From assembly GCA_905181635.1 (NCBI GenBank), contig CAJIYM010000004.1, forward strand, positions 8,642 to 72,641: DNA of 64,000 nucleotides. The letters run 5' to 3'. Position 1 is the first letter of the stretch, and each line of letters begins with the position of its first letter. The stretch comes from an uncultured Flavobacteriales bacterium (GTDB lineage Bacteria; Bacteroidota; Bacteroidia; Flavobacteriales; BACL11). A program made the position numbers and the translations under genes. The notes under the pieces are model-generated. The model did no database searches and was not told the origin of the DNA. It saw nothing but the letters and a program-made list of their open reading frames with translations. Shown piece by piece: positions 15,485 to 37,128 of this stretch.

Positions 15485-16381
15485 TTATTTTCTATTATAA
15501 AAATTAGTCATTATTATTGCGTGAGGTAAGGTTATAACTGAGATACCAATTATTGAGAAAAGAAATACTGATATATTAATAAACCCAAGGTTCATTAATA
15601 ATAAGAAAACTACCAAAAATATAATTGAAAGTAAAGTATGAGGATATAATAGTTTAATAAAATTAAGCATATTTAGATCAGACTGTAAAGATTTCAAGTA
15701 ATCAAACTCTTGTTTTAGAACTTTAATTGAATGAAGAAAAATAAAGTATAATGTAAAGCTGATAATTATTGGAAATAAATAAAAAGTAATATGAATTAAG
15801 ATCAACAGAAATATTTCATTCATTAACTGCTGATTAGAAATACTTAATTTATAATTTTCAAAAAATAACAGATAAATTATTATTAAATTACTAAAATAAA
15901 AAATATACTTAAAAATTGAAACATTAAATACTTGACTAAAATTTTTAGTATCTATAAACTGATTTGATAGTAACAGTAATTCATTATTATTATAAAAAAT
16001 TAAAGTTGAAAGCAACGCAAATCCCCAAATCAAATAAATAATTCTTTTTTTATTTACAAAAGGATAATCTACTAGCTGTGATTCACCAAAATGGTAAGAC
16101 GACAAGAATAAAAAGAAAATAAGTGATATAACTGGCGTTATCCACCAGAACAAACAGTAAATAATTATAGTTACTAAATATATTAAATAAAATCTAAATC
16201 TTGTGATCTTGTTAGATGATAAGTAAATAATATTATCAATTGCTCCGTGAGGAATACCAAAAAGAGAAATTAAAATTATAGAACCTAAAACTTGACTCTG
16301 CATGCTAATCTCACCATTTAATGTGAAAATTGCAAAAAGAGCATAAACAAATATGAGATATGTGAATGTAAATTTATTCAA
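15485..16381 (-). CDS. blh: Beta-carotene 15,15'-dioxygenase, Brp/Blh family (retinal synthesis)
   Basis: Polytopic membrane protein with conserved His-containing segments GIPHGAID, SSYHFGESQ, FLHSIKV and LPHAII. It lies immediately downstream of the rhodopsin gene. The track start is TTG at 16379-16381, which overlaps the T-tract of the rhodopsin terminator. An alternative ATG is at 16303 (MQSQVLG). Confidence 0.85.
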   Translation of the reverse strand: MNKFTFTYLIFVYALFAIFTLNGEISMQSQVLGSIILISLFGIPHGAIDNIIYLSSNKITRFRFYLIYLVTIIIYCLFWWITPVISLIFFLFLSSYHFGESQLVDYPFVNKKRIIYLIWGFALLSTLIFYNNNELLLLSNQFIDTKNFSQVFNVSIFKYIFYFSNLIIIYLLFFENYKLSISNQQLMNEIFLLILIHITFYLFPIIISFTLYFIFLHSIKVLKQEFDYLKSLQSDLNMLNFIKLLYPHTLLSIIFLVVFLLLMNLGFINISVFLFSIIGISVITLPHAIIMTNFYNRK

Positions 16382-16409
16382 AAAAAAAAGGGCAGGATTT
16401 CTCCTGCCC
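16380..16409 (-). terminator. Intrinsic terminator between proteorhodopsin and blh
   Basis: The minus strand reads GGGCAGGA-GAAA-TCCTGCCC followed by about 10 T. It lies 22 nt after the rhodopsin stop. Confidence 0.8.
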
Positions 16410-16430
16410 TATTTCTTTAAATTAAAATAA

Positions 16431-17162
16431 CTAAGCTACTTTTTTATTTGATTCAGCTATAGCGATAGAATAAACCACTAATCCAAATCCTATTTTGTTG
16501 ATTGCATCAGCAATGTTATACCATACATCAACACTTTCTGGTGCCATAACACTACTTAACCATCCACCTTCCATACACATGTATCCAATTGGATAGATTG
16601 ACCATCCTACTAATACAAACCAAGCTAAATATTTAACGCCTTTCTTAATAGCATCAGAATTACTTTTTTCAGCTAATTGAGCAACCTCACCAAACCATAC
16701 AGTGTACGCTATGTATAAATAACCAATAGTTGAAAGTACTCCCCATGTTACAGAATGACCAGTAGTTCCATCTGAGAATGCCTCTCCAATATATCCACAA
16801 ACTAACATCCAAGTTGAAGCAAGAATTAACTTCCATAATAGACTTTTCTTAGCTCCAGCCAGTTTAGTAAGTAAGTAAAACTCAACACACATCAATGGAA
16901 CCGTTAAGATCCAATCTACATATCTGAAGAAAGTTGGAGAAGTTTCAGTTGCTAACCAATAGTCTCTCATGTAATAATAGTGTACAGCAGCTATTCCCGT
17001 AATTAGAGCTGATACTAGTAAAGACATTTTCCATTTGTCGTCAACACTTCCTCTTTCAACAAAAAAGAATACAGATGCTGCTAACATTGCAATATAACCT
17101 ATGAAGAATGTGAAAGCCACATAATTGTCTGGTGCGATTGCTGTAATAACATTTAATAACAT
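16431..17162 (-). CDS. Proteorhodopsin, DTE-motif outward proton pump with Met at the spectral-tuning position 105
   Basis: RYVDWILTVPLMCVEFYLL gives D97/T101/E108 with M105. The Schiff-base lysine sits in YNIADAINKIGFGL. Seven TM helices. A -7 box TAGATTTG lies at 17190..17197. Confidence 0.95.
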   Translation of the reverse strand: MLLNVITAIAPDNYVAFTFFIGYIAMLAASVFFFVERGSVDDKWKMSLLVSALITGIAAVHYYYMRDYWLATETSPTFFRYVDWILTVPLMCVEFYLLTKLAGAKKSLLWKLILASTWMLVCGYIGEAFSDGTTGHSVTWGVLSTIGYLYIAYTVWFGEVAQLAEKSNSDAIKKGVKYLAWFVLVGWSIYPIGYMCMEGGWLSSVMAPESVDVWYNIADAINKIGFGLVVYSIAIAESNKKVA

Positions 17163-17236
17163 TTTTTTATTTTTTTAATTAATATTCAGCAAATCTAATA
17201 AAAATAATTGAAATCATGTAATTAAATTTTTTATTT

Positions 17237-17266
17237 TGTATAATTTTTTATTCATAAATCTATACA
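17237..17266. promoter_or_regulatory. Palindromic operator site B upstream of proteorhodopsin: TGTATAAT-N14-TCTATACA
   Basis: ttTGTATAATtttttattcataaaTCTATACAttt. It lies 75-104 nt upstream of the rhodopsin ATG and 39 nt upstream of the -7 box. Confidence 0.6.
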
Positions 17267-19352: not shown

Positions 19353-20015
19353 TTAAATTTTTCTTTTCCAAAATTTATTCATTTCTGAAGCAGGTGTAGT
19401 GCTTAATCTTGGAAAAGGTAATTCAGCTATCTTGTTCATAGTATAGTAAGAATTTAAGCCGCCAACACCTACTGAATTACTATCCTCCAAATCAATTGAT
19501 CCTTCTGCTATAAAATTAATACCATCATCTAATAAAACATGCTCTACCTCTCCAATAATAAATTTACAGCCGTTACTTTTAATTGGAATTATTTCATGTA
19601 ACTTAAGACCTATTTTCACTTTACTTTCCTTTACAAAAGGAGGGGAGTAATTATCAATATAAAAACTTTCTAAATTACAATAATCAAACTCCGATTGGTC
19701 TTCATTAAAATTAAGGGAAGTATAATGTGCCTTTTCAACAAAATTAGAATTCACATGATTAATAGTGAAATGTTTAGTTTCTAATATGTTGTTTAAGGTA
19801 TCTCGTTTCACATTATTATTTGGACGCATTACAAAACCAATTAGTGCAGGATCACTTCCTAAATGTACAACCGAGCTGAATATAGCTAAGTTTGTGTTGC
19901 CACTTTCACTTAAAGTACCAATCAAATTAGCAGATTTAATTCCAGTAATAGAATTCATTAACCTTAGTCTTTTAATTCTGTTTAAATCCTTAATTTCTAA
20001 TTTTGTATAATGCAT
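19353..20015 (-). CDS. Flavin reductase-like (FMN-binding split-barrel) protein
   Basis: Segment ITGIKSANLIGT...NLAIFSSVVHLGSDPALIGFVMRP resembles the flavin reductase domain. Moderate certainty. Confidence 0.55.
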   Translation of the reverse strand: MHYTKLEIKDLNRIKRLRLMNSITGIKSANLIGTLSESGNTNLAIFSSVVHLGSDPALIGFVMRPNNNVKRDTLNNILETKHFTINHVNSNFVEKAHYTSLNFNEDQSEFDYCNLESFYIDNYSPPFVKESKVKIGLKLHEIIPIKSNGCKFIIGEVEHVLLDDGINFIAEGSIDLEDSNSVGVGGLNSYYTMNKIAELPFPRLSTTPASEMNKFWKRKI

Positions 20016-20053
20016 GTGAAATAATAATTAATTAAAATAATTCAGAGAATTGA

Positions 20054-20557
20054 TTAAACATTTCTTGTATCATAAGCCCAATGCAATAAGGCTTGTCTTT
20101 GTTTTTTTCTACAAGATAAATCTCCTTTTTTACAATTTTTCTTTATTGCACCTAAATGCCTTACGATTGATTTCCATCTCTTAATTTGACGAATATCCTC
20201 ATCACGCAACCTTCTTCCCATAAAATACCTGCAATACCACTGAAACCATCCTCTAGGGTCATCGTCATAAATCCAACCCTTATTCTTCCAATGCGATAAT
20301 GGCATAGAAGCATCAATTTTAAAGAAATTAAGATTAGAATCTTTTTTATGCTTTGATAAGACAGCATTCTCAAACCAATTATCAGGGAATTCATTGTAGC
20401 AATCGTTCATATATTTTCCCCCAAATATACCTAACTCTAACATTTCCTTAGGCTCAAGCTCAGGCTTAAAATCTGGATGAAAATTTTTCCCTATTTCTTC
20501 GCTAAGAAAATAAAAGAAATTTTCTTGCATCTTATCATTTACAACTACTAATTTCAT
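20054..20557 (-). CDS. Conserved hypothetical protein
   Basis: 167 aa with a distinctive Trp-rich block DPRGWFQWYCRYFMGRRLRDEDIRQIKRW. I cannot place it in a family. Confidence 0.5.
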   Translation of the reverse strand: MKLVVVNDKMQENFFYFLSEEIGKNFHPDFKPELEPKEMLELGIFGGKYMNDCYNEFPDNWFENAVLSKHKKDSNLNFFKIDASMPLSHWKNKGWIYDDDPRGWFQWYCRYFMGRRLRDEDIRQIKRWKSIVRHLGAIKKNCKKGDLSCRKKQRQALLHWAYDTRNV

Positions 20558-20558
20558 A

Positions 20559-22596
20559 TTATTTAATATATTTTATTAGCATCTTGGGTAGATATATTAT
20601 ATCAAATATTAAGGCTATGATGGCTGCTAAAATAGTTATTATTGATAATTGACTAATAGATTTGAATTCAGAAAATAATAATGGCAACAAAGTAAATATA
20701 ATTACTATGGATGTTTTAATTACAGCCTTGTAAGTGTAATTTTGACAATGCGATACAGAGTCTGCAATACTTAAACCCCTATTTCTAGAGAGGCTATAAG
20801 CGTTAATAATATGTATTGAATCATCAACAATTAAACCAAAAACAATAGCTAATATAAATGCATTAGAAAGACTAAAATAAAAACCGAAAACTGATAGAAT
20901 ACCTATAGTAGTTAGTAATGGAAGAATATTAGGAATTAAGGAAATTGGAAAATAGTACCAATTAAAATTATTTAATGACACAAACACTATTCCAATTATC
21001 ATGATTGCAAGTAATAAACCAAAAATAATTTCAAAAGTCATTTTATTGCTGATTTTATCAAAGAGAAATCCAACTCCAGCAATCTCTAAATCTAATTGCA
21101 AGTCTTTAGATTTCATTAGTATATCATCAAAAATAATCTTTGATTTACTTGACCCAATATCTTGCATTCTGGCCTTAATTGTGTACTGACTACTATTTGA
21201 GTTTTGGCTAATTTTCTTTGACAAAAAATCTGAAGAAAAATCAATAACTAAATTATGACTAAGTATTATGTTTTCTAGAGAATCTAAATTATCTCTTGAT
21301 GGATCGTTCATTAATAATAAAAGTAACTGGCTTTATACCACCAAATTCTTTATCAAAAAAACTAATATCTTTATATAGATTAGACTTTTTATTAATCTCA
21401 TCAGTAAGGAAATTATCAACTCTAAAATTAGTAAAGGCTAAAGATGAAAGAAATATAAATGATGCTAATAGTATATAAAACTGAGATTTTTTAATATTAA
21501 TAAATGACAATATTAAATCGTCTAAAAATTTGTTGTTTCTAATATTCTTATTGATATTAAATTCGATAATAAATGAATATAAAACTACAATTACAATAAG
21601 AGATATAAAAATTGTAATAGTAGTAATTACACCGAACCTAAACAAAGGGACTAATGATGAGAACATAAAACTCAAAAAACCTATAGCAGTTGTTAAGGAA
21701 GTAATAAAAACTGGCATGCCTATCTTTTCTAATTGACACTTAAAGGATCTAAATTTATTTTTATATAATTTATCAGAATTCAATAGATGCATAAAATCAG
21801 AAATAGTAATAATAAAAACTATAGCTGGTATAAGAATCATTACTAATTCAATACCCCCAAATAATTTATTAGAAAGAGTGAAAGAAAGAATTAATGAGAT
21901 ACAAACTGATATGAAATTTATTAATACTAATTTAAAATTATTTAAATAAAAATATAAAACTAAACTACATAAAACACTACTTAAGATAATAAATAACATC
22001 AACTCTTTAGTCACATTATCCTGCATATAAATTTCAGATTTAGTCTGACCAGTAATGTATACCTTTAATTTATCTTTAGAGAATTCTTGTGCTAATTTAT
22101 CTAAGTATAATCTTTTTTGCGAATCAGTTTCTAGACTCTTCGATTTAATAATAAATAAAAATGAGCTGAGGTCTTTTGTTGCATATTTAGTTCCGTACTT
22201 TCTTATTTTAGTTATTGAGGATTTATAATTTTTAAAATTATCAATTTTTAAAACTTTAAGAGCAAATGGAATAACACTTTTTTTGATCAATATCCTCTCA
22301 TTAAAAATACTTCTAACAGAAGCTGTATTTTTATCTTTTGAAATATTATTTGAAATAATAGATAAATCTAATAGATCTTGGTAACCGATAGAGTCTTTAA
22401 ATTCAACAGCTAGCAAAATTAGATTTTTATCATCTAAAGATTTATCAATAATATCCTTACTCTCCTTCGACAATTCAATAATTCGTTCACTATCATAAAA
22501 AATTTTTAAACCACTTATATTAGTTAGTGATAAGACAAACATCAATAATATTAACGAAAGTAAAAGGTACTTATATTTCCATATTAATTTTATCAC
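20559..22596 (-). pseudogene. MMPL/RND-superfamily exporter split by a +1 frameshift (track ORFs 21289..22596 and 20559..21311)
   Basis: ORF1 reads TM1, a periplasmic loop, 5 TM, TM7 and the start of loop 2. ORF2 reads the rest of loop 2 and 5 TM (GLIVDDSIHI). The two overlap by 23 nt in frames offset by +1, so the second periplasmic loop is cut in the middle. Confidence 0.65.
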
Positions 22597-23258
22597 TTAA
22601 CAATCGTTGACAGACCCCCGTCAACACTAAAATCTTGGCCTGTTATCCAGCTTGAGTCATCAGAAATTAAAAAATTAACCATTGAAGAAATATCAGAAAC
22701 AGATCCAACTCTATTAAGAGGATGTTTATTTGACATTCGTTCAACCATACTCTCATCCTTTAAAAAGTTTTGTGACATTGTACTATTAAAAAGTGAAGGT
22801 GAAATAGTATTTAATCTTATTTTTGGAGACCATTCCGCGGCTAGTGTTCTACTTAATGATAAGATAGCTGCTTTACACATTGCTATAGAGCTATGAAATG
22901 GCATTCCAACCTTTGCAGCAATAGAGCTAAACATTACGATAGATGAATTTTTATTTAATTTTTTTTCATAAAACTTTAAAACATTCAGCAACCCAACAAC
23001 ATTTATATTGTAGTCTTCATTAAAGTCATCAACTTTTATTCTCTTAAATGGTTTTAAATTTATATTTCCAGGAAAATAAACAATTCCATCTAAATTATCT
23101 ATTTCAGGAAAAGTTAAAGTATTTAAAATATCAAATTTTAAATAATCAGAATAATTATCTTTACGACTTAAGCTAATAAAATTATAGTGAGCACTATATT
23201 TTTCAATTAAATCTATTGACACTTTGCTACTGGCTCCTACTAATAAAATATTTTTCAT
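22593..23258 (-). CDS. Short-chain dehydrogenase/reductase-fold protein (atypical)
   Basis: Rossmann N-terminus LLVGASSKVS and C-terminus ITGQDFSVDGG. In the active-site block SSIAMCKAA, Ile stands where the YxxxK Tyr is expected. The gene overlaps the exporter start by 4 nt. Confidence 0.7.
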   Translation of the reverse strand: MKNILLVGASSKVSIDLIEKYSAHYNFISLSRKDNYSDYLKFDILNTLTFPEIDNLDGIVYFPGNINLKPFKRIKVDDFNEDYNINVVGLLNVLKFYEKKLNKNSSIVMFSSIAAKVGMPFHSSIAMCKAAILSLSRTLAAEWSPKIRLNTISPSLFNSTMSQNFLKDESMVERMSNKHPLNRVGSVSDISSMVNFLISDDSSWITGQDFSVDGGLSTIVK

Positions 23259-23280
23259 AATTCTCTTTTAAATAAGAAGG

Positions 23281-23305
23281 AGCCTAATTATTCATTAGAC
23301 TCCTT
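23281..23305 (-). terminator. Possible terminator hairpin after the cupredoxin-FAS1 gene
   Basis: GGAGCCTAAT-tattc-ATTAGACTCC (one mismatch). The T-tracts are weak on both sides. Confidence 0.35.
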
Positions 23306-23325
23306 TATAAAAATTAATTTAACTA

Positions 23326-25257
23326 TTATTTGTTAAACACTTTTTCAACCGAACCATCTTTAAATACATTAAAGGTTATTTGGTTTTTTAAGTTATTACT
23401 TACTTTCTCTCCTAATATATTGACAGAGTATAAATATGTTTTTTCTAGATTACTGTAATCAATAATATCTGTTGTTGTTGGAATTAAGACAGCATCAATA
23501 ACATGTACTACACCATTGTCAGCTACAATATCAGCTACAGTTACCATAGCATTATCAATATAAACTCCCATTGAATTAATTGTTACTGTGACATCAGTTC
23601 CAAGTAATGTTGTAACTACTTGATTATTTGATAACATACTTGACATTACACTAGCCCCTACAACATGGTGCTTTAAAATATCGGTTAATAAAGGAATATC
23701 TGCTAGCAATGCAGTTACTGTACCAGCTGGTAAAGCATTAAATGCCGCATCTGTCGGAGCAAATAGTGTTAATGTAGCAGCAGGGTCTGACAAAAAACCA
23801 TCTAATCCACAAGCATCAACAGCTGCTTTAAGCGTTGTATGAGCAGATGAATTTGAAACTATATCATAAATTGTAGTTGGTGGCACTAAAACAGCATCAA
23901 TAACATGTACAACGCCATTGTCAGCTACAATATCAGCTATAGTTACCATAGCATTATCAATATAAACTCCTGATGAATTAATTGTTACTGTGACATCTGT
24001 TCCAAGTAATGTTGTAACTACTTGATTATTTGATAACATACTTGACATTACACTAGCCCCTACAACATGGTGCTTTAAAATATCGGTTAATAAAGGAATA
24101 TCTGCTAGCAATGCAGTTACTGTACCAGCTGGTAAAGCATTAAATGCCGCATCTGTCGGAGCAAATAATGTTAATGTAGCAGCAGGATCTGACAAAACAC
24201 CACCTAATCCACAAGCATCAACAGCTGCTTTAAGTGTTGTATGATCAGTTGAATTTGAAACTATATCATAAATAGAATTTGTACAAAACGCAGGATCACT
24301 CACCCATAATGGGTTCATAGGATCATTTGGAAATATCAACATTTGACTGCTAGGATCGTAATCTACACCAGCTACTAAAATGTTAGCATTATCTACAAAA
24401 GTAGGAATATTTGTTTGAAAATTATAAAGATAAGCTTGCTGGCAAGTACCACATGAATCAACTAATGCTGTTCCATCAATTACAGCATTACAATCCATGG
24501 GTGGCAATAAAATAGCATTAATGACATGGACAACACCATTGTCAGCAATTATATCTGCAATTGTTACTTGAGCGTTGTCTATAAAAACTCCCACTGAATT
24601 AATTGTTACTGAAACATCTGTACCTAATAATGTTGTTATAACTTGATTATTTGTAAGTGACCCAGCTAAAGCTGTTCCTTGAACTGCATGATGCTTTAAA
24701 ATATCTGTCAGTAGTGTTAAGTCGGTTAGTAAAGCAGTTACAGTACCTGGAGGAAGAGCTAAAAATGCATCATCAGATGGAGCAAATAATGTAAAATCCT
24801 GATTTACATCTGAAAAAACAGCATCAAGTGAAGTTGTATCTAAACATATTTTTAAGTAATTGTGCACAGGAGAATTTGAGACAATATCATAAATAGTATT
24901 TGAAGGGGCATTAACTACAACAGTACCAACCATTCCGTTCACCGCATGAGAGCCTACAGAACAATCATAAGAATAAGTACCTGCTAATGTGAAGACATGA
25001 GTGTAAATTGTACTAGATGCAGTCGGGGAAGAAATAAATGAAAAAGGATTATTAAAACTTAGGCCCGTTATAGTGCTAATATCAAAATTAACATTGTGAT
25101 AGCCACCGTCATTTTCCCAATTAACAGTATCTCCAATATTGATGGTTAATGACTGGGGCGAGTAATAATAATCACCAGAATTAACTGTATAGTTTGCAGC
25201 GTTAATATTAGCAATCATTAAGAAAAATGAGCAAATAATTAGTTTAATTTTTTTCAT
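23326..25257 (-). CDS. T9SS-secreted protein: N-terminal cupredoxin (plastocyanin-like) domain, three fasciclin (FAS1) domains and a C-terminal sorting domain
   Basis: Signal peptide. Putative Cu ligands are H in GGYHNVNF and C...H...M in YDCSVGSHAVNGM. Three FAS1 units each show TLFAPTD.AF..LP.GT...LL, HVV and DNGVVHVID. C-terminal tail YLYSVNILGEKV...VFKDGSVEKVFNK. Confidence 0.85.
   Translation of the reverse strand: MKKIKLIICSFFLMIANINAANYTVNSGDYYYSPQSLTINIGDTVNWENDGGYHNVNFDISTITGLSFNNPFSFISSPTASSTIYTHVFTLAGTYSYDCSVGSHAVNGMVGTVVVNAPSNTIYDIVSNSPVHNYLKICLDTTSLDAVFSDVNQDFTLFAPSDDAFLALPPGTVTALLTDLTLLTDILKHHAVQGTALAGSLTNNQVITTLLGTDVSVTINSVGVFIDNAQVTIADIIADNGVVHVINAILLPPMDCNAVIDGTALVDSCGTCQQAYLYNFQTNIPTFVDNANILVAGVDYDPSSQMLIFPNDPMNPLWVSDPAFCTNSIYDIVSNSTDHTTLKAAVDACGLGGVLSDPAATLTLFAPTDAAFNALPAGTVTALLADIPLLTDILKHHVVGASVMSSMLSNNQVVTTLLGTDVTVTINSSGVYIDNAMVTIADIVADNGVVHVIDAVLVPPTTIYDIVSNSSAHTTLKAAVDACGLDGFLSDPAATLTLFAPTDAAFNALPAGTVTALLADIPLLTDILKHHVVGASVMSSMLSNNQVVTTLLGTDVTVTINSMGVYIDNAMVTVADIVADNGVVHVIDAVLIPTTTDIIDYSNLEKTYLYSVNILGEKVSNNLKNQITFNVFKDGSVEKVFNK
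23483..24273 (-). repeat. Near-identical 402-bp tandem duplication (FAS1 units 2 and 3)
   Basis: The same sequence recurs with a period of exactly 402 nt (for example AGCATCAATAACATGTAC at 23491 and 23893). It includes a run of about 169 identical nucleotides. By eye, only scattered substitutions lie elsewhere. Confidence 0.9.
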
Positions 25258-25262
25258 TGTTG

Positions 25263-25294
25263 TTTGGTTTTAGTTTGGTTTTAGTTTGGTTTAA
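25263..25294 (-). repeat. 11-nt tandem repeat (about 2.9 copies) in the 5' leader of the cupredoxin-FAS1 gene
   Basis: Plus strand: TTTGGTTTTAG TTTGGTTTTAG TTTGGTTTAA. In mRNA sense this is ...AAACCAAACUAAAACCAAACUAAAACCAAACAACA-AUG. A -7 box TATTTTTG lies at 25317..25324. Confidence 0.8.
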
Positions 25295-25367
25295 TTGATT
25301 ATGTTTGATTTGAGAGCAAAAATACAATTGAAATATGAATCAAAACTGATTTTTTAGTTTTACTTGA

Positions 25368-25547
25368 TTATGAAATAAAATTATACTCAGCAGTAGGGTA
25401 CATGTCCAACCATTTTTTAAGCTGCACTTTAGTTTTTAAAGTTACAGTCATAGTTTTAGTTTTAAAAATAATTTTTGGAGAATTATTTTTAATTTTGTCT
25501 AATATTTTTTCAGCCTTCCTTTTTTTCATTAATCTGTAATCGCTCAT
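25368..25547 (-). CDS. Small basic protein (59 aa), hypothetical
   Basis: MSDYRLMKKRKAEKILDKIKNNSPKIIFKTKTMTVTLKTKVQLKKWLDMYPTAEYNFIS. The ATG at 25545-25547 lies 22 nt after a minus-strand -7 box TACATTTG (25570..25577), the same box and spacing as at site A. Confidence 0.35.
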   Translation of the reverse strand: MSDYRLMKKRKAEKILDKIKNNSPKIIFKTKTMTVTLKTKVQLKKWLDMYPTAEYNFIS

Positions 25548-25573: not shown

Positions 25574-25603
25574 TGTATAAGTTTTTTAATAAAAAGCTAT
25601 ACA
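25574..25603. promoter_or_regulatory. Palindromic operator site D: TGTATAAG-N14-GCTATACA in a divergent promoter region
   Basis: aaTGTATAAGttttttaataaaaaGCTATACAaa. The left half overlaps the minus-strand -7 box. The right half ends 16 nt before the plus-strand -7 box TAATTTTG (25620..25627). Confidence 0.55.
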
Positions 25604-25635: not shown

Positions 25636-26028
25636 ATGATGATGAAAAAACCAGACAATGTAGTATTTGATATCCAATTACAGGAGTATGATTCTTACAA
25701 AAAAAATTATCCAACAGATTTAGGTAGTCCAGCATTTGACAGTTCAGTGTTAAAGAAAGATAACTTTGCATTTAAGCATTTAAAAGCTAAATTTGATGAA
25801 CTTAATTCAGAGTACAAACAGCTGTTAACTAAATTAAAATGGAATGAGTTAATCTATAATTCAGAGCATAATTTCACCCCTATTGCTGGTGAAGCATATC
25901 ACTTATACAAAAACAAAAACACTACATTCCTTAGTATCATAGAGCCAAACCAATGGGAAATGGAGCACATAGGTTCATTCAAATTATTGGCAAATGATAT
26001 CTGGGAACAGATAAAAAATAAAAAATGA
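25636..26028 (+). CDS. Conserved hypothetical protein (possibly DUF2452-like)
   Basis: Start chosen at MMMKKPDNVV (ATG 25636), downstream of the -7 box; the track start at 25567 lies inside the operator/promoter. The stop overlaps the next gene start (ATGA). Confidence 0.55.
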   Translation: MMMKKPDNVVFDIQLQEYDSYKKNYPTDLGSPAFDSSVLKKDNFAFKHLKAKFDELNSEYKQLLTKLKWNELIYNSEHNFTPIAGEAYHLYKNKNTTFLSIIEPNQWEMEHIGSFKLLANDIWEQIKNKK

Positions 26029-27143
26029 AAATATTCACAATAATAACGCTAATAATACTGCTACTTTTTTTTACAAAAAACCTCTTCTCTGTAGTTGAAA
26101 AAGAAAACTATACAATTATTAAAAAAATAGAGGATATTGAAATTAGGCAATATAAAAGCTCAATTTATGCCAGTTATATTCCAAAAAATGAAAAAGAAAG
26201 AACTAATTCGTTTAAAAAAGTAGCATCTTTTATTTTTGGTGATAACACAAGCAGTGAAAAAATTAGTATGACATCACCTGTAGTTATAAAAATCCATAAT
26301 GATTACGAAATGGCATTTTTAATGCCTGAACAATACAGCTTAGAAAACTTACCAAAACCTGTCAACAAAGAAATAAACATTTACACTGAACCAGGATCTT
26401 TAAAGGCTTGCATTAAGTACTCTGGATACACAAATAGTTCAGTCGAAAACAGAAAGATAAATGAGCTAAAAAAAATACTATTAAAATATAACTACAATCA
26501 TGAAAATGATTTTGAAGTTTTAGTATATAATTCTCCTTTTGATTTTTTAAACCGAAGAAACGAAATAACTGTAACAATTAACATGGATATAAAAAGTAAA
26601 GAAAATATTTCATCAATAAAGAACATCTATTTTGGAGGAGGATGTTTCTGGTGCACCGAAGCTGTATTTGAACAAGTTAAAGGCGTTGAAATTGTAGCAA
26701 GCGGATATTCAGGAGGCAAGATTAAAAATCCATCTTACAAAGAAGTATCAAAAGGCTTAACTAGTCATGCTGAAGTTTGTAAAATATCATATGATGAAAA
26801 CATAATAAAATTAAACGAACTAGTTGAGATCTTCTTTTACTACCATGACCCCACAACCTTAAATAGACAGGGCAATGATCATGGAGCACATTACAGATCA
26901 ATAATACTTTATAATAATGATGATGAAGAAAATATAATTAATACAGTCAAAAATAAAATTAACGAAGAAAAATATGACGGTAAAATTATTACAGAAATAA
27001 AAGAATTTTCCAATTTTTACTACGCTGAGGAGTTACATCAAAACTATTTTAAAGAAAATTCATCTCAGCCATACTGCGAAATAGTTATCTCACCCAAAGT
27101 AAGTAAGGTTAGATCAGAACTAAATAAATATTTCAAGAATTAA
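26025..27143 (+). CDS. msrA: Fusion protein: N-terminal TM/signal anchor, SOUL heme-binding-like domain, and peptide-methionine (S)-S-oxide reductase MsrA
   Basis: SOUL-like motifs FIFGDN...ISMTSPV, MAFLMP and RRNEITV in residues about 25-190. The MsrA catalytic motif GGGCFWCTEAVF and the rest of MsrA occupy the C-terminal half. Confidence 0.85.
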   Translation: MKIFTIITLIILLLFFTKNLFSVVEKENYTIIKKIEDIEIRQYKSSIYASYIPKNEKERTNSFKKVASFIFGDNTSSEKISMTSPVVIKIHNDYEMAFLMPEQYSLENLPKPVNKEINIYTEPGSLKACIKYSGYTNSSVENRKINELKKILLKYNYNHENDFEVLVYNSPFDFLNRRNEITVTINMDIKSKENISSIKNIYFGGGCFWCTEAVFEQVKGVEIVASGYSGGKIKNPSYKEVSKGLTSHAEVCKISYDENIIKLNELVEIFFYYHDPTTLNRQGNDHGAHYRSIILYNNDDEENIINTVKNKINEEKYDGKIITEIKEFSNFYYAEELHQNYFKENSSQPYCEIVISPKVSKVRSELNKYFKN

Positions 27144-27844
27144 CTTTTAATAAAGTTTGAATAATTGAAATTTTTAAATGTCTCATAAAGCAACACATTC
27201 AACAATATCATTAAGTAACCATAAAAAAAATCTTCAATAGGTATTGTAAATATCCTGTACCCTAAGTTCTCTAAGTCATTGTACCATACCACTTCATTTT
27301 CAATCCACATACCAGTAAGTAGCCCATTACTTATGACCATAAAAGGTAAAATGCTAATGAATGAGATTGTAATTGTATTAATATTAATCTTTCTATATAA
27401 ACAAAATAAAAGTGCCATTGATAATAATCCAAAAGTGTAAGAAGTATACATTTTCTCAAAATTATATATAAATAATATTGATGATAAAATAATTAAGAAA
27501 GAAGTAATAATTCTTGATTTATATAATTTATTTATGTTAGGAAAATACTCTCTAATAACAAAATATGTAAAAACACAAGCATAAGGAATACAGAAAAAAA
27601 ACAAACCTTCTTCAATTGGAATATTCTGAGTTAAAAATAATCCAGTTAGATAATCTGATCTAAAACCCCACACTCCAATTTCAACAAATATATGATCCCA
27701 AATAATAAATAAAATAGCTATAATGATATTTGCAGGAATAAAATATCTCCATTGCTTATAAAATTTATGTTTGAGTAAAAAACTAAAAATAAAAGGAATA
27801 ATTATACAGCCAACATTTATGAGTAGATACAAGTATTGCTTCAT
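27140..27844 (-). CDS. Lycopene beta-cyclase of the fused CrtYc/CrtYd (lycopene-cyclase-domain) type
   Basis: 234-aa polytopic membrane protein with two copies of the PxE(E/D) signature (IPIEEGLFF and IPIEDFFYG). Sits between crtZ and the msrA fusion. Confidence 0.7.
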   Translation of the reverse strand: MKQYLYLLINVGCIIIPFIFSFLLKHKFYKQWRYFIPANIIIAILFIIWDHIFVEIGVWGFRSDYLTGLFLTQNIPIEEGLFFFCIPYACVFTYFVIREYFPNINKLYKSRIITSFLIILSSILFIYNFEKMYTSYTFGLLSMALLFCLYRKININTITISFISILPFMVISNGLLTGMWIENEVVWYNDLENLGYRIFTIPIEDFFYGYLMILLNVLLYETFKNFNYSNFIKS

Positions 27845-28305
27845 TTTCTATTATATTGTTCTCTAAAGTATTTAAAAGGTACAATAAGCATACCAAAACT
27901 TTCTCCATCATACTTATCTAAATACTTATGGTGCACCTTATGGCCTTTTCTTAATGCAAGCAAATACTGCGATTTAGTTTTTTTAAACCATTTAAATCTT
28001 TGATGAATAAATATATCATGTACAAGAAAGTAAGCTAAGCCGTAAAACAAAATACCTAAACCTATAAAGAATAAGTTATTTAAAGCTGGGAATGAACCAT
28101 AATAAAAAAGCATTATACTAGGAATAGCAAAAACTAAAAAAAAAGTATCATTCTTTTCAAAAATACTATTATATCTGGGTTGATGATGATCCTTATGTAA
28201 TACCCAAAGAAATCCATGCATTACATATTTATGAGTGAACCAAGTAATACATTCCATCACTAAAAAAGTTAATAGTGTTATTGCGATATAATTAAGTATA
28301 ATCAT
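27841..28305 (-). CDS. crtZ: Beta-carotene 3-hydroxylase
   Basis: Fatty-acid-hydroxylase His boxes HKYVMHG, HKDHH, HDIFIHQR and HKVHH. 154 aa. Confidence 0.9.
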   Translation of the reverse strand: MIILNYIAITLLTFLVMECITWFTHKYVMHGFLWVLHKDHHQPRYNSIFEKNDTFFLVFAIPSIMLFYYGSFPALNNLFFIGLGILFYGLAYFLVHDIFIHQRFKWFKKTKSQYLLALRKGHKVHHKYLDKYDGESFGMLIVPFKYFREQYNRK

Positions 28306-28310
28306 AAAAT

Positions 28311-29222
28311 TTAGTTTTTTTCTTTTAATTCTTTATCAATAGCAATACCAACATTTGGATACTGGAATTTAAAGCCTGTTGACATAAGTTTTTTTACAGA
28401 TACTGCTATATCAGTTGATAATATTTTTCTTCTTTGACCAAGCAACAATCTTAGAACAAAAGTAGGTATCTTTATAAGAAGAGAATATCTAAAATATTTA
28501 TTTTTAATAACATTTAGAAATTCTGCTTGATTAGTTTTGCTTTCAGTAGCAAGATTGTAAGCACCATTAACATTTTTATTTTTCAATGAAAAAAGAATAA
28601 AACTTGACAAATCATCTAAGTGTATCCACTCAAAAGATTGAACTCTCTTGCCCAAAATAGGAGCAACTCCAAATTTCATTGACAAAAGAATAGGCTTTAG
28701 AAAGCCTGATGATTTAGTAAAGATCAAAGAAATTCTTAATTTAATAACTCGGGTATTAATTGTCGTAAAATCGTTAGCAGATTTCTCCCAGTCAATTGCT
28801 AATTTTGCAAGCCAATCATTAGCAGGCAAGTCAGATTCAACTTTAATTCCAATGGAATCAAAACCATAATAACCTATAGCAGAAGCGCTAACAAAAGTTT
28901 TAATATTAATTTTTTTTTCTTTACAATAATTAAAAAGTAAATTAGCAGCATCAACTCTACTAACATACATCTTTTTTTTATTTTCTTCTGTCCATTTATT
29001 AATTACACCATATCCAGAAAGATGAACTATATGAGAACAATTGGCCAAAGGAGCTTTATCAAAAACGCCACTTCCAACATCCCAATAAAAAATATTTTTA
29101 TTATTTATTATATTTAAGTTAGAAGAGTAAAAAAAAACTTTAAAACCATCAATTTCTAATTTTTTAGCAACAGATTTAGCTAGATTTCCGCTTGCACCAG
29201 TAATAATGACTATCTCCTTCAT
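28311..29222 (-). CDS. TIGR01777-family NAD-binding epimerase-like protein (YfcH-like, DUF1731 C-terminus)
   Basis: Rossmann N-terminus ITGASGNLAKS. The length and the C-terminal GFKFQYPNVGIAI block are typical of the family. Confidence 0.7.
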   Translation of the reverse strand: MKEIVIITGASGNLAKSVAKKLEIDGFKVFFYSSNLNIINNKNIFYWDVGSGVFDKAPLANCSHIVHLSGYGVINKWTEENKKKMYVSRVDAANLLFNYCKEKKINIKTFVSASAIGYYGFDSIGIKVESDLPANDWLAKLAIDWEKSANDFTTINTRVIKLRISLIFTKSSGFLKPILLSMKFGVAPILGKRVQSFEWIHLDDLSSFILFSLKNKNVNGAYNLATESKTNQAEFLNVIKNKYFRYSLLIKIPTFVLRLLLGQRRKILSTDIAVSVKKLMSTGFKFQYPNVGIAIDKELKEKN

Positions 29223-29229
29223 AACTAAA

Positions 29230-29688
29230 TTAAATGTTAAACATCTTTTCCATTAAATTAAACCTATAATCAAAAACATATTTTAGTTTTTTCTTTATAA
29301 AAAAATAATTCACAATATCTCCAATAAATCCAAATGGAGGAATGTAAGTGATAATATCTTTCATAACCACAAAATCACCATTATCCTCAAAAATATGCTG
29401 ATGATGCCATAGCTTGTAAGGACCGAGCCTTTGTTCATCAACAAATAAATGATTTTTTTTGACTTGAGTAATTTCAGAAACCCAATCCATTTTAAAATTT
29501 AATACTGGTGAAACTTTGTAAGTAATAATCATGCCCGAATAAATTTTCTCATTCTGATTACCTGATTTCACCTCAAATTTCATTTCTTTTGGGGTAATAA
29601 GCTCTAAATTCTTTGGGGAAGTAACAAATTCCCATAATTTATCAATCTTACAATTTATAACTTGCTCTTTTTTAATTTGATAATACAT
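29230..29688 (-). CDS. SRPBCC (START/Bet v1-like) ligand-binding protein
   Basis: 152 aa. WEFVTSPKNLELITP and LGPYKLWHHQHIFE resemble the SRPBCC proteins that accompany TIGR01777 genes. Confidence 0.6.
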   Translation of the reverse strand: MYYQIKKEQVINCKIDKLWEFVTSPKNLELITPKEMKFEVKSGNQNEKIYSGMIITYKVSPVLNFKMDWVSEITQVKKNHLFVDEQRLGPYKLWHHQHIFEDNGDFVVMKDIITYIPPFGFIGDIVNYFFIKKKLKYVFDYRFNLMEKMFNI

Positions 29689-29692: not shown

Positions 29693-30574
29693 TTATTTAG
29701 ATATAAGGTTAATAAAACTATTTACATCAGTAAAAATATTTACACTGCTTTTTTTGACAATCATCTTAGAAGTCATCTCTGATGATATAATATATTTATT
29801 TGCAGATTGAAAATTAGATTCAAGATATTCAACTGTAGAATTAATGTTAATTATTGACGAGTTTGAGACTGCAAACATTAGAGTATTATTAATTTTTATT
29901 TTATCATCTACTTGATTTAATGACCCATAAGGAAGGTTTGAACCAAGATAAATAACGTTAAATCCATTTTTTACTAATAAAAACCTAGCAAATAGAAGAC
30001 CTATTTCATGAAACTCATTTTCAGGCAGAAACAATAACCATGTGTCTCTAGTATTCTCTTTTTTAAAATAAATATCACTAGCAACAATTAACTTTTGTTT
30101 AATGTTTTCAGAAAGAAAATGTTCTTGAGAAGGAGCCATCCTGTTAGTTAACCAAAGAATACCTATCCTATCTAAGGTAATTAGAATGACTTTTTTATAA
30201 AAATCAAGAATGCCAAAATCTGAAACACCATCTTCAAACAATTTATTAAATTTAGATGTGCTAAATTCTAATGTTGAGATAATTATTTGACTAATGTAAT
30301 AGCTTTCCCTTCCTTTTGTCTGCTTAACTTTTATCTCATCAACTATTTTAAATAAATCAATCTTAGAAATCCTAGAAATCTTAGAAATCTTATATCCATT
30401 TTCCAATAAATAATTAGTATTTAAAGCTCTAACAATCATATCGTCAGTATAGATCCTGATATTTGTTTCAGATCTATTTGCTTTTAAATAATCATAACGA
30501 TTCTCCCAGGTTCTTAAAACAAATTTTGTTATACCTGTAATGCTTGAAAATTGATCAATACTATACTGTCCCAT
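29693..30574 (-). CDS. CarH/LitR-type MerR regulator with an adenosylcobalamin-binding photosensor domain
   Basis: N-terminal MerR HTH (YSIDQFSSITGITKFVLRTWENRY). Both CarH signatures are present in the C-terminal half: Wx9EH (WLTNRMAPSQEH) and the lower-axial-ligand motif ExHxxG (EFHEIG), followed by a Rossmann-like GFNVIYLGSNLP. A -7 box TACTTTTG lies at 30588..30595. Confidence 0.85.
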   Translation of the reverse strand: MGQYSIDQFSSITGITKFVLRTWENRYDYLKANRSETNIRIYTDDMIVRALNTNYLLENGYKISKISRISKIDLFKIVDEIKVKQTKGRESYYISQIIISTLEFSTSKFNKLFEDGVSDFGILDFYKKVILITLDRIGILWLTNRMAPSQEHFLSENIKQKLIVASDIYFKKENTRDTWLLFLPENEFHEIGLLFARFLLVKNGFNVIYLGSNLPYGSLNQVDDKIKINNTLMFAVSNSSIININSTVEYLESNFQSANKYIISSEMTSKMIVKKSSVNIFTDVNSFINLISK

Positions 30575-30602
30575 AAAAAAATTTTAACAAAAGTACAAAA
30601 AT

Positions 30603-30632
30603 TGTATAGAATAATATTAAAACATCTATACA
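30603..30632. promoter_or_regulatory. Palindromic operator site C in the carH/crtI divergent promoter: TGTATAGA-N14-TCTATACA
   Basis: atTGTATAGAataatattaaaacaTCTATACAttc. The left half is 7 nt (30596..30602) from the carH -7 box. The crtI -7 box TAAATTTG is at 30664..30671. Confidence 0.7.
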
Positions 30633-30696
30633 TTCTTAACTAGACAATAACAAAAAATTTATATAAATTTGCAAAAAAATTAATTCCAAATAAATT

Positions 30697-32163
30697 TTGA
30701 AAAAAGTTATAGTAATAGGTAGTGGCTTTGCTGGTTTGAGCTCAGCAGCGTATCTTTCAAAAGAAGGTTTTGATGTTACTATTATAGAAAAAAATAAGGA
30801 AATTGGGGGCCGTGCTAGAAACTTTAAGGCTAAGGGATACACATTTGATATGGGTCCAAGCTGGTATTGGATGCCAGAAATTTTTGATAATTTCTTTAAT
30901 AGTTTTAATTACAAAACAAAGGATTTTTATGAACTAATAAAATTAAATCCTGGCTTTAAAGTTGTATTTGATAATTCAGATATGGCCCTTCCTGCTAATT
31001 GGAGTGAAATATGTGATTTATTTGATAAATATGAAGTAAACGGCGCGAGGAAATTAAACAATTTCATGGAAGATGCAGAAAAAAAATATAGTATAGGTCT
31101 TAGATTTTTATATAATTCTCCCGGGCTTTCTATTACTGAATTACTAAAAAAAGATGTGTTATTTAATGCAAATAAATTGCAATTACTTACTTCTTACAGA
31201 AAACATATTAAAAGACATTTTAAAGACCCTAAATTGATCAGCTTACTTGAGTTTCCAGTTCTATTTTTAGGAACATCAGCAGAGAGCGCTCCGGCTCTAT
31301 ACAGTCTTATGGCATATTCTGGTCTTAAACAAGGTACTTTTTATCCAATGGGAGGCTTTGCTAAAGTCATTGAGAGTATGGCAGAAATATGTAAAAATTA
31401 TGGAGTTAAATTTTTACTAGAAGAGCAAGTAATTAAAATCAATATATCTAACAAAATAGTAAAATCTATTACAACTGAAAAACAAGAGATACGAACTGAC
31501 TTTGTCGTTGGTGCAGCAGATTACGTGCACATTGAATCAAAATTAATTGATAAAAAATACAGAAACTATAATTCTTCATATTGGAAGAAAAGAGAATTTT
31601 CACCATCAGCACTTTTATTTTATCTTGGAGTAAACAAAAAATTAAATAATCTTGAACATCATACATTGTTTTTTGATGAGGACATGGAAAAACTCTCACA
31701 AGAAATTTATGACACCAAAGTTTGGCCTGAAAAACCTCTTTTTTATACATGTTGTCCTGCTAAATCAGAAGAAAATTTAGCACCTAAGGGGAAAGAAAAC
31801 CTTTTCATATTAATGCCAATTTCTGCAGGGCTTGAAGATACCGAAGAGCTTCGTGAAAAGTATTTCCAAATTATTCTTAAAAGACTTGAAAATTACTGTA
31901 AACAAGACATAACATCCAATATTGAATACAAGAAAAGCTATTGCATAAAGAATTTTGAAGAAGATTATTTCGCATACAAAGGAAATGCATATGGTTTAGC
32001 AAATACATTATTACAAACAGCAAACCTAAAACCAAAAATTAAAAACAAGAAGGTTGAAAATCTTTTTTATTGTGGACAATTAACAGTTCCAGGACCTGGA
32101 GTTCCACCTTCAATAATTTCAGGAAAATTAGTAGCAGAACAAATTATTAAAACAAATAAATAA
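30697..32163 (+). CDS. crtI: Phytoene desaturase
   Basis: TTG start. FAD-binding N-terminus KKVIVIGSGFAGLSSA and C-terminal GQLTVPGPGVPPSIISG. Confidence 0.9.
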   Translation: MKKVIVIGSGFAGLSSAAYLSKEGFDVTIIEKNKEIGGRARNFKAKGYTFDMGPSWYWMPEIFDNFFNSFNYKTKDFYELIKLNPGFKVVFDNSDMALPANWSEICDLFDKYEVNGARKLNNFMEDAEKKYSIGLRFLYNSPGLSITELLKKDVLFNANKLQLLTSYRKHIKRHFKDPKLISLLEFPVLFLGTSAESAPALYSLMAYSGLKQGTFYPMGGFAKVIESMAEICKNYGVKFLLEEQVIKINISNKIVKSITTEKQEIRTDFVVGAADYVHIESKLIDKKYRNYNSSYWKKREFSPSALLFYLGVNKKLNNLEHHTLFFDEDMEKLSQEIYDTKVWPEKPLFYTCCPAKSEENLAPKGKENLFILMPISAGLEDTEELREKYFQIILKRLENYCKQDITSNIEYKKSYCIKNFEEDYFAYKGNAYGLANTLLQTANLKPKIKNKKVENLFYCGQLTVPGPGVPPSIISGKLVAEQIIKTNK

Positions 32164-33000
32164 ATGAAAGCTATTTTCGATAAAGTCTCGAATGATTGCA
32201 GTGAAATAACTACCAAATCTTACAGTACAAGTTTTTCATTAGGAATTAAAATATTAGACAAAAGCTTACACAATCCAATTTATGGAATTTACGGTTTTGT
32301 TAGATTTGCAGATGAAATTGTGGATTCATTTCATAATTACAATAAAAAAGAACTATTCAAGAAATATAAAAGTGATACTTATTTAGGGATCAAGAATAAA
32401 ATAAGTTTAAATCCAATTATTAATAGTTTTCAAGAAGTAGTTAATAAATTTAAAATTGATCACTCATTAATAGAGTTATTTCTAGATAGCATGGAAATGG
32501 ACTTAGAGGAACAGCATTACGATGAAAATACTTACAAAAAATATATATTAGGATCGGCAGAAGTAGTTGGGTTAATGTGTTTAACCATTTTTGTTAAAGG
32601 AGATAAAAACCAATACAAGAAGCTTAAGCCATATGCAATGAAACTTGGATCAGCTTTTCAAAAAATAAATTTTTTAAGAGACGTAAATGATGACTTCAAT
32701 GAACTAGGAAGAACTTATTTTCCAGAAGTTAATATGTCAAATTTCAATGATACAGACAAGCTGAAAATTGAAAATGAAATTGAAAATGAATTTACCGAAG
32801 GTTTAAAAGGGATAACGATGTTACCAAACACATCAAAAGGAGGCGTTTACTTAGCTTATAAATATTATTATAATTTATTCAAAAAGATAAAAAGAATACC
32901 TGCTAATAAAATTTTAGAAAAACGGACTAGAATTTCTAATCCTAGAAAATTTATTATATTATTATCATCAATGTTAAGTTATCATTTGAAAAAAATATGA
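32164..33000 (+). CDS. crtB: Phytoene synthase
   Basis: Squalene/phytoene synthase motifs YGFVRFADEIVD and AFQKINFLRDVNDD. Starts 1 nt after the crtI stop. Confidence 0.9.
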   Translation: MKAIFDKVSNDCSEITTKSYSTSFSLGIKILDKSLHNPIYGIYGFVRFADEIVDSFHNYNKKELFKKYKSDTYLGIKNKISLNPIINSFQEVVNKFKIDHSLIELFLDSMEMDLEEQHYDENTYKKYILGSAEVVGLMCLTIFVKGDKNQYKKLKPYAMKLGSAFQKINFLRDVNDDFNELGRTYFPEVNMSNFNDTDKLKIENEIENEFTEGLKGITMLPNTSKGGVYLAYKYYYNLFKKIKRIPANKILEKRTRISNPRKFIILLSSMLSYHLKKI

Positions 33001-33455
33001 AGTTAACTAATATTATCATATTATTAGTATTTGTATTCACTTGTAAAGCTCAGACAAATAATCTAGATACGATAAGAAAAGAATACTTAGAAACAATTCA
33101 GAGTGAAGCAAGAATTATCCAATTACTAAATACATGTGAGAAATATAAAGATAATTCAACTATCTCTGCATACAAAACTGTAGCTAAACTGATGCTAATA
33201 GAGTATGACAATAATCCTTTAACGAAGCTTAAATTATTCACTAAATACACTAAAAAACTTGATTCTATTGTCACAAATAACATAAATAATTTAGAAATAC
33301 GCTTTCTAAGATTTTGCACACAAAAACAAACACCAAGATTTTTGGGATACAACGATAATTTAGAATTAGATTATAAATTTATTATACAGAATATTGACAT
33401 TCAATCTAAAGAACTGCAAGAATATATCAATCCAGCATTAAAAAAACTTAAATAA
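32997..33455 (+). CDS. Hypothetical exported helical protein co-transcribed with crtIB
   Basis: Signal peptide MKLTNIIILLVFVFTCKAQ. The ATG overlaps the crtB stop (ATGA). I recognise no motif. Confidence 0.55.
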   Translation: MKLTNIIILLVFVFTCKAQTNNLDTIRKEYLETIQSEARIIQLLNTCEKYKDNSTISAYKTVAKLMLIEYDNNPLTKLKLFTKYTKKLDSIVTNNINNLEIRFLRFCTQKQTPRFLGYNDNLELDYKFIIQNIDIQSKELQEYINPALKKLK

Positions 33456-37127: not shown

Positions 37128-37128
37128 T

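Follow-up and report, generated by a model that had tools for sequence, protein, structure and literature searches.

A conserved 30-bp palindrome is most likely the operator of a candidate vitamin B12-based light sensor in uncultured marine flavobacteria

A 30-bp DNA palindrome that precedes pigment, proteorhodopsin (PR) and damage-repair genes of uncultured ocean flavobacteria is most likely the docking site of a vitamin B12-based light sensor of the CarH/LitR family, which would explain how these bacteria switch on sun-related genes. The palindrome was identified in a 64,000-nucleotide stretch of an uncultured Flavobacteriales bacterium (assembly GCA_905181635.1, contig CAJIYM010000004.1, positions 8,642 to 72,641 of the forward strand), which is hereafter called the window. 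A preliminary description of the window had reported an 8-14-8 palindrome at four promoter regions and had proposed that one B12/light-sensing repressor co-controls carotenoid synthesis, PR, a DNA glycosylase operon and a methionine-sulfoxide repair operon. The four sites were confirmed, with their sequences and positions. The proposed interpretation is supported by independent comparative evidence, with qualifications on the breadth of the regulon, the position of two promoters, the lineage distribution of the PR site and the absence of functional data. The features of the window are as follows.

13348..13377 (no strand): site A, a perfect 8-14-8 dyad; the predicted -7 box TACATTTG (13374-13381) overlaps the right arm (offset 27 from dyad position 1).
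13404..15288 (+): two small membrane-type ORFs, the Fpg/Nei glycosylase (13728-14525) and a redoxin (14677-15288).
15485..17162 (-): PR (16431-17162) and blh, the beta-carotene dioxygenase (15485-16381).
17190..17197 (-): the only good PR -7 box (TAGATTTG on the minus strand), offset 70; the dyad would span about -80 to -51.
17237..17266 (no strand): site B, the dyad upstream of PR-blh.
19353..25547 (-): a small 59-aa ORF (25368-25547), a cupredoxin-fasciclin protein, SDR, MMPL (split into two ORFs), an unknown 167-aa protein and a flavin-reductase-like protein; the -7 box TACATTTG (25570-25577, minus strand) overlaps the left arm of site D (offset 27).
25574..25603 (no strand): site D, a dyad shared by two divergent units.
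25637..27143 (+): DUF2452 and a SOUL-MsrA fusion; the -7 box TAATTTTG is at 25620-25627 (offset 47).
27140..29688 (-): genes co-directional with the regulator gene (carH), namely an unknown 152-aa protein, SDR/DUF1731, a CrtZ-like His-box protein (27841-28305) and lycopene cyclase.
29693..30574 (-): the CarH/LitR-like regulator, 293 aa, with a MerR-type DNA-binding domain (LRTWENRY), W140-x9-E150-H151 and E186-F-H188-E-I-G191.
30588..30595 (-): predicted carH -7 box (TACTTTTG on the minus strand), starting 38 nt from dyad position 1; the dyad covers about -48 to -19.
30603..30632 (no strand): site C, the dyad TGTATAGA-N14-TCTATACA between carH(-) and crtI(+), the predicted autoregulatory operator.
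30664..30671 (+): predicted crtI -7 box (TAAATTTG), offset 62; the dyad lies upstream of the -33 region.
30697..33455 (+): crtI, crtB and an unknown 152-aa ORF.

The eight-base arms differ between sites, and the 8-14-8 pattern with up to three mismatches is not itself significant (4 found, 1.03 expected; 1 of 100 shuffles reaches 4). What the four sites share is the core TGTATA-N18-TATACA, which occurs exactly four times against 0.03 expected from dinucleotide-preserving shuffles, and 0 of 100 shuffles reach 4. The window (30% G+C) holds 28 TATACA and 24 TGTATA hexamers, 52 copies on the two strands, and the only pairs within 60 bp of each other in any orientation are these four, all with a gap of 18. 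All four sites are intergenic although about 91% of the window is coding, which gives a chance of about 5e-5 that all four fall outside genes. A relaxed scan of the window with TGTnnA-N18-TnnACA adds only one match, at 15110 inside the redoxin gene, against about 2.6 expected by an estimate from base composition, and this match was dismissed. Isolated copies of TCTATACA lie inside crtI (31296) and the HlyD-type gene (39938), as the preliminary description had noted, and a third copy that it had not mentioned lies at 56090 inside the 2853-aa ORF.

Pfam searches confirm the gene assignments of the preliminary description, which had not mentioned the minus-strand unit that faces site D. The CrtZ assignment rests on inspection of the His boxes, with no Pfam hit. 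No cobalamin riboswitch or other Rfam RNA was found in the window apart from one tRNA.

Conservation of the dyad was examined in related loci chosen through the regulator or PR and not through the motif. A search of one genome per species with the regulator alignment returned 15 loci from uncultured Flavobacteriales metagenome-assembled genomes, whose regulators are 52-80% identical to that of the window, and further loci were fetched through PR homologues that are 76-96% identical to the PR of the window. The loci come from metagenome-assembled genomes. In these 34 loci (469 kb; L numbers below denote individual loci), there are 50 exact dyads against 0.23 expected, and none lies deep inside an ORF. 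Of the 14 regulator loci with DNA upstream of the regulator gene, 13 have an exact dyad there, and L003 has one mismatch (TGTGTA, which still reads TnnACA on the other strand). A dyad also lies upstream of carH in L144 and L148, two loci from a motif scan of metagenomes. The arms are fixed while the spacers differ freely. The dyad recurs upstream of orthologues of crtI, msrA, nei and PR in other genomes and other gene orders.

In most of these genomes, the gene order differs from that of the window, yet the same gene families sit behind dyads. The divergent partner of the regulator is a fasciclin - glutathione peroxidase (GPx) - msrA - nei - NUDIX operon, whereas carH is divergent from crtI in the window, L001, L014 and L144. 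A second dyad lies between an unknown 150-aa gene and a long operon that holds the 152-aa protein, two flavin-reductase-like proteins, a DPRP/(6-4)-type photolyase, a metallophosphoesterase, a TonB-receptor-like protein, SDR/DUF1731, a CPD photolyase and a crtI-like gene. A third dyad lies between PTPS-folE-crtI and SDR-MMPL. At the position of site D, L001 has two dyads, at 14973 and 15015. The predicted regulon is wider than was first proposed; in relatives it also includes photolyases, pterin synthesis, GPx, NUDIX, the SDR-MMPL pair and a small unknown protein, and msrB is found in addition to msrA. The metagenome motif scan, which returned at least 120 loci, is not usable as an unbiased regulon census, because most matches were chance hits from gut, soil and other habitats with G+C-rich spacers. 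Seven of the 120 loci examined hold any regulon homologue, and only L099, L144, L148 and L111 plausibly belong, with L048 added from its Pfam hit.

PR carries a dyad in several unrelated gene contexts. In L019-L027, which have different neighbours (a Peptidase_S24/IMS pair) and 32-37% G+C, the dyad ends 45 nt before the PR start codon, and a -7 box starts 9 nt after the dyad (offset 39). The right arm varies in these loci as TATACA, TAGACA or TCTACA, all of which are TnnACA. In L032-L034, where a cupredoxin gene is divergent, there are two dyads 52 bp apart. The L031 contig starts inside the site, and the right arm and -7 box are present. In L099, the dyad lies 71 bp from the start of the PR match. 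L030, whose PR is 96% identical, and L017/L018, which also hold canonical dyads elsewhere, have the symmetric variant TGCATA-N18-TATGCA at the same promoter offset. L016, L029 and L028 have no full dyad upstream of PR. PR membership thus recurs in independent contexts but is lineage-specific.

What protein recognizes the dyad? The neighboring regulator is a distant but clear CarH/LitR relative. It aligns from residue 2 to 235 with Thermus thermophilus CarH (E 9e-11), and a profile built from 14 relatives gives the same best target (E 3e-12). The two motifs named in the preliminary description, WLTNRMAPSQEH and EFHEIG, are present, and W140, E150-H151 and H188 fall on W131, E141-H142 and H177 of Thermus CarH. 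The N-terminal region matches Pfam MerR_1 (E 5e-13), and its recognition helix reads LRTWENRY, which is RxWExRY with one Arg of the family motif RxWERRY (PMC9304148) replaced by Asn and is invariant in sets of 14 and 49 homologues. An AlphaFold model from 16 close homologues had a pLDDT of only 37 and was discarded, whereas a 49-sequence alignment gave a model with pLDDT 83.2 and pTM 0.78. All top 50 Foldseek matches of this model in the PDB are Thermus CarH, with about 292 aligned columns, and the cobalamin-binding domain superposes at TM 0.77-0.83 and rmsd 3.2-3.9. The best NCBIfam model is the CarH equivalog NF052513, but the score of 69 bits is far below the cut-off of 400, and the protein is a distant subfamily rather than an equivalog.

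An intact Wx9EH motif together with the B12 motif is the published criterion that separates B12-dependent CarH from CarA (PMC9304148). Wx9EH and ExHxxG are invariant in 49 homologues. However, of the classic motif D/ExHxxG...SxT/V...GG, the first part is followed by an SVSN stretch and GG is missing, the family having A/S/V-N or SS there. Moreover, Pfam B12-binding_2 scores 22.7 against a cut-off of 23, and PF02310 is not reported, so that the sequence does not settle whether the full classic motif is represented. Thermus residues H132, the second His of the photoproduct, and R176 and D201, which form the dimer salt bridge, are replaced by Leu, Phe and Asn, and photochemistry and oligomer contacts may therefore differ. 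Adenosylcobalamin binding, dark-state oligomerization, DNA binding and light-induced release were not assayed, and there is no experimental datum of any kind on this system.

Each arm of the dyad equals the TnnACA core of the CarH repeat nAnnTnnACAn (PMC8156234, PMC9304148), flanked by A/T. Seven of the eight half-sites of the window fit the full repeat, in line with the earlier remark that they mostly do, and the left half of site C has T instead of A at position 2. Natural arm variants upstream of PR (TAGACA, TCTACA) and of carH (TACACA) change only the free nn positions. The arms are inverted, with centers 24 bp apart, whereas every characterized CarH operator is a set of three or four tandem direct repeats, and no further TnnACA/TGTnnA repeat is conserved at 11-bp steps between or beside the arms.

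The arm variants also bear on the possibility that the dyad is not a protein operator but a hairpin, terminator or REP-like repeat, or a bidirectional promoter for an alternative sigma factor with TGTATA/TATACA acting as -35/-10 hexamers. An 18-bp spacing is within the range of sigma-70-type promoters, and the double change TGCATA...TATGCA would preserve base pairing. However, the variants TAGACA, TCTACA and TACACA break pairing but keep TnnACA, the loop would be 18 nt of A/T with no T-run after it, and the dyads lie upstream of ordinary -7 boxes at phased distances. Furthermore, both arms are equally conserved even where only one side has a gene (site B), and the dyads occur only next to one functional set of genes. 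We consider this reading very unlikely.

Another possibility is that a different transcription factor, for example a photo-oxidative-stress regulator encoded elsewhere, binds the dyad and that carH is just one member of its regulon. Many of the genes (msrA, GPx, nei, NUDIX, redoxin) would also suit an oxidative-stress regulon, and no binding data exist. However, the dyad accompanies carH at a fixed promoter offset, no other regulator gene is conserved in these loci, the arms match the recognition core of the CarH family, and the recognition helix keeps RxWExRY. This alternative is also unlikely.

Promoters were predicted only from the Bacteroidetes -7 consensus TAnnTTTG, and a sigma-70 promoter scan was not used because Bacteroidetes promoters are of a different type. 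Every such box that points away from a dyad within 90 bp falls at offset -5, 5, 16, 27, 36-39, 46-47, 58-62, 69-70 or 80 from dyad position 1, and none falls in between. Over 14 promoter classes, which were partly hand-curated and are not all fully independent although the objective listing agrees, the phase concentration peaks at a period of 10.5-10.75 bp, about 10.7 bp (Rayleigh R 0.80, permutation p 1.5e-4). Most dyads overlap the -33 or -7 elements (offsets -5 to 47), which put the dyad over the -7 box, the start site or the -33 region, as a repressor would need. This holds for carH (38 in the window and 36-39 in relatives), the SDR unit, the 152-aa protein unit, PTPS, sites A and D (27 and 47) and PR in L019-L027 (39). 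For crtI (62 in the window, 61 in L001 and 58 in L014) and for PR in the window (70), where the dyad lies about 53 to 82 bp upstream of the predicted start site, the dyad is upstream of the core promoter and direct occlusion is not evident. The observed placements leave it undecided whether the operator as a rule overlaps the core promoter of its targets, as in CarH systems. The arrangement does not match that of canonical MerR activators (MerR, CueR, SoxR), in which a dimer binds a palindrome inside a 19-20-bp -35/-10 spacer and activates by DNA distortion, because the arm centers are 24 bp apart, the dyad sits at nine different phased offsets from the -7 box rather than between the promoter elements, and the C-terminal part is a predicted CarH-type cobalamin-binding domain.

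The strict phasing suggests that the bound protein and the polymerase, or further DNA-binding domains of the same oligomer, must share one face of the helix. The phasing, the distal offsets (58-80), the missing GG and the nonconserved H132, R176 and D201 keep a further alternative in play, in which the CarH homologue binds the dyad but is not a simple B12/dark repressor. It could be B12-independent, like CarA or the non-B12 LitR classes, or could act through face-specific contacts with RNA polymerase, repressing or activating from upstream positions at promoters such as crtI and PR. This alternative is opposed by the invariant Wx9EH and ExHxxG and by the overlap of most dyads with -33 or -7 elements, and phasing is also expected if the remaining DNA-binding domains of a tetramer touch the same DNA face, as in known CarH operators. 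We regard it as improbable, although it is the least improbable of the alternatives.

Thus, we propose with reasonable confidence that the dyad (T)TGTATA-N18-TATACA(A) is the operator of the regulator encoded at 29693-30574. By analogy with characterized CarH proteins, the regulator would bind adenosylcobalamin in the dark, oligomerize and sit on the dyad, placing two DNA-binding domains on the two inverted arms and blocking the -33/-7 elements that most dyads overlap. Light would cleave the Co-C bond, the oligomer would fall apart and the genes would be expressed. In Thermus, the two DNA-binding domains of one head-to-tail dimer bind repeats 22 bp apart (PMC9304148), and a two-fold-symmetric dimer that contacts two inverted arms at a similar distance is a plausible geometry. 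Double dyads 34-52 bp apart occur in L001, L003, L013 and L032 and could each take one dimer of a tetramer. The motif, its conservation, its placement relative to predicted promoters, the gene content behind it and the CarH-like sequence and predicted fold of the regulator come directly from the analysis, whereas the identity of this protein as the binder, B12 as the chromophore, dark repression as the sign of regulation and the oligomeric binding mode are inferences. Dark repression with light derepression is supported by the gene content, which comprises pigments, PR with its retinal enzyme, photolyases with pterin and flavin supply, and repair of oxidized methionine, lipids, bases and nucleotides.

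In this view, four dyads of the window would gate about two dozen genes within roughly 20 kb: carH itself with crtZ and crtY; crtI and crtB; PR and blh; nei and a redoxin; DUF2452 and SOUL-MsrA; and a cupredoxin/fasciclin-SDR-MMPL-flavin reductase unit. A bolder reading, which we hold only tentatively and at somewhat less than even likelihood, is that a B12-based photoreceptor, rather than a rhodopsin, BLUF or cryptochrome sensor, is the master light switch of abundant uncultured PR-bearing flavobacteria. It would directly gate PR-blh together with carotenoid, pterin, photolyase and oxidative-repair genes, and phototrophy and photoprotection would then depend on vitamin B12 supply. It would use a binding mode not seen before in the family, with two DNA-binding domains on inverted TnnACA arms held in helical phase with Bacteroidetes -7 promoters, and a 54-60-aa protein that is always encoded directly behind a dyad could be a partner.

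Light reportedly induces PR and carotenoid genes in some cultured flavobacteria (Dokdonia MED134) but not in others, and constitutive PR expression is reported in a flavobacterium, presumably strain PRO95. The predicted regulon was not compared with measured light-induced genes of Dokdonia (PMC3176510). Flavobacterial genome papers list only photolyase/cryptochrome and PAS/BLUF candidates as light sensors, and a Chryseobacterium paper only speculates about a LitR-like regulator. Full-text literature searches, which did not extend to subscription literature, found no paper that links CarH/LitR to PR or describes a flavobacterial operator. A conserved operator next to a CarH-type gene gives a concrete, testable mechanism and also explains why the response could differ between lineages, since the dyad is present upstream of PR in some clades and absent in others. 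It ties a vitamin that is scarce in seawater to light-dependent gene control in a very abundant bacterial group, and the regulator has thousands of metagenomic homologues. For the CarH family, it adds an inverted-repeat operator and a Bacteroidetes promoter context, and it would be the largest CarH regulon that we know of. The regulon further marks several unknown proteins as light-related, namely the 152-aa protein, DUF2452, the TonB-receptor-like protein, the small 54-60-aa protein and the SDR-MMPL pair.

Related systems share parts of this arrangement. A photolyase gene cluster enriched in PR+ marine Flavobacteriia (Kumagai et al. 2018, PMC5932025) has the same kind of clustered photolyase and photolyase-related genes, but that study describes gene co-occurrence only, and the terms MerR, transcriptional regulator, promoter and motif do not occur in it. 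The light regulons of the non-B12 LitR classes in Proteobacteria (Burkholderia, Pseudomonas putida) are multi-operon regulons that include photolyase, folE/pterin genes and membrane-lipid genes, which resembles the gene content found here. Their regulators lack an intact B12 photoreceptor module, the flavobacterial protein keeps Wx9EH and ExHxxG, and binding sites were not compared. Bacillus megaterium CarH and the myxobacterial CarH/CarA proteins are B12-dependent, MerR-type light repressors of carotenoid genes, with operators that overlap the -35 or -10 elements and an operator design that is plastic and tolerates pseudo-repeats, and M. xanthus CarA sites include inverted repeats in some species (PMC9304148). 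However, those operators are four or five 11-bp repeats read in tandem, with footprints of 34-55 bp, and they control carotenoid clusters only and act on sigma-A -35/-10 promoters, not on Bacteroidetes -33/-7 promoters.

The closest system is T. thermophilus CarH (LitR; PDB 5C8D/5C8E/5C8F), which is the best sequence and fold match and has the same three-module architecture of a MerR-type DNA-binding domain, a helical bundle with Wx9EH and a Rossmann-type B12 domain with ExHxxG. Its gene is also divergent from a carotenoid gene, its operator overlaps its own promoter, and its DNA repeat core is TnnACA. The flavobacterial regulator differs from Thermus CarH in its low sequence identity of about 18-20%, the nonconserved H132, R176 and D201 and the missing GG motif. 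The Thermus operator consists of three tandem 11-bp direct repeats, whereas the flavobacterial dyad has two inverted arms 18 bp apart with no conserved middle repeat, and the predicted flavobacterial regulon is far larger and includes proteorhodopsin.

The promoter regions and operons associated with the dyads have additional features, which are described here for the window and for the related loci L001-L034. A conserved small protein of 54-60 aa, with a basic N-terminus and the motif ...PKIIF.T..M...L....W...YP...Y, is always encoded by the first gene behind a dyad. This gene is located at 25368-25547 on the minus strand of the window, at 15046-15261 in L001 and around 9838-10002 in L004-L015. 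In most relatives, its stop overlaps the carH start, whereas in the window and L001 it heads the fasciclin unit at site D, the dyad shared by two divergent units. The small protein has no Pfam or NCBIfam family, and it may be a partner of the regulator.

At all dyad sites in the window and L001-L034, the -7 boxes (TAnnTTTG) that point away from the dyads occur only at offsets -5, 5, 16, 27, 36-39, 46-47, 58-62, 69-70 and 80, which corresponds to a strict period of about 10.7 bp. The cause of this phasing is unexplained, with face-specific contact or extra DNA-binding domains as possibilities. In addition, pairs of dyads lie 34-52 bp apart in divergent promoter regions at 14973 and 15015 in L001, 1768 and 1820 in L003, 9740 and 9774 in L013, and 1221 and 1273 in L032. 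The window has a single shared dyad (site D) where L001 has two.

The dyads upstream of the proteorhodopsin (PR) gene vary in both arm sequence and gene context. A symmetric arm variant, TGCATA-N18-TATGCA, lies upstream of PR in L030 (2421-2450), L017 (about 6953-7029) and L018 (about 6543-6619) (between PTPS and PR), with the -7 box at the usual offset of 46-47. L031 and L032 have canonical arms at what looks like the orthologous site, and L017 carries canonical dyads elsewhere in the same contig. The variant could be a tuned-affinity site or the target of a paralogue. In the clade represented by L019-L027, PR is divergent from a Peptidase_S24 plus IMS (UmuD/UmuC-like translesion polymerase) pair about 120 bp upstream of the PR dyad; there is no indication either way as to whether the dyad also affects this pair.

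The following features of the window were also noted.

1153-4014, minus strand: uvrA, with no dyad nearby
12579-12651, plus strand: one tRNA
20559-22596, minus strand: MMPL transporter
26025-27143, plus strand: MsrA fused to an N-terminal SOUL haem-binding domain
27841-28305, minus strand: protein with CrtZ-type His boxes
32997-33455, plus strand: ORF after crtB
33474-38364, minus strand: metallophosphoesterase, unknown 346-aa protein and TonB-receptor-like protein (CarboxypepD_reg plus Plug)
47523-62530: several very large surface proteins

The uvrA gene, the tRNA and the surface proteins are ordinary features. The surface proteins contain Por_Secre_tail, fn3 or SprB domains (type IX secretion cargo) and lie next to a 2853-aa ORF that was not annotated. 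The ORF after crtB has no family hit and looks like a secreted protein rather than CrtZ. The CrtZ-type His boxes (HKDHH, HDIFIHQ and HKVHH) are found in the protein at 27841-28305, although Pfam reports nothing for it.

Comparison with the relatives reveals differences in both gene structure and operon membership. The MMPL transporter is a single ORF of 674-691 aa in relatives (L001 and L005-L015) but is split into overlapping ORFs of 435 and 250 aa in the window, which may reflect a frameshift, a sequencing error or a decaying gene. The metallophosphoesterase, the unknown 346-aa protein and the TonB-receptor-like protein have no dyad in their upstream region (38365-38511) in the window, whereas their orthologues in L005-L015 lie inside the dyad-controlled photolyase operon. 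No photolyase gene was found among the window ORFs that were annotated. The SOUL-MsrA fusion is shared by the window and L001. In more distant relatives, however, MsrA stands alone (about 185 aa) inside the fasciclin-GPx-msrA-nei-NUDIX operon.
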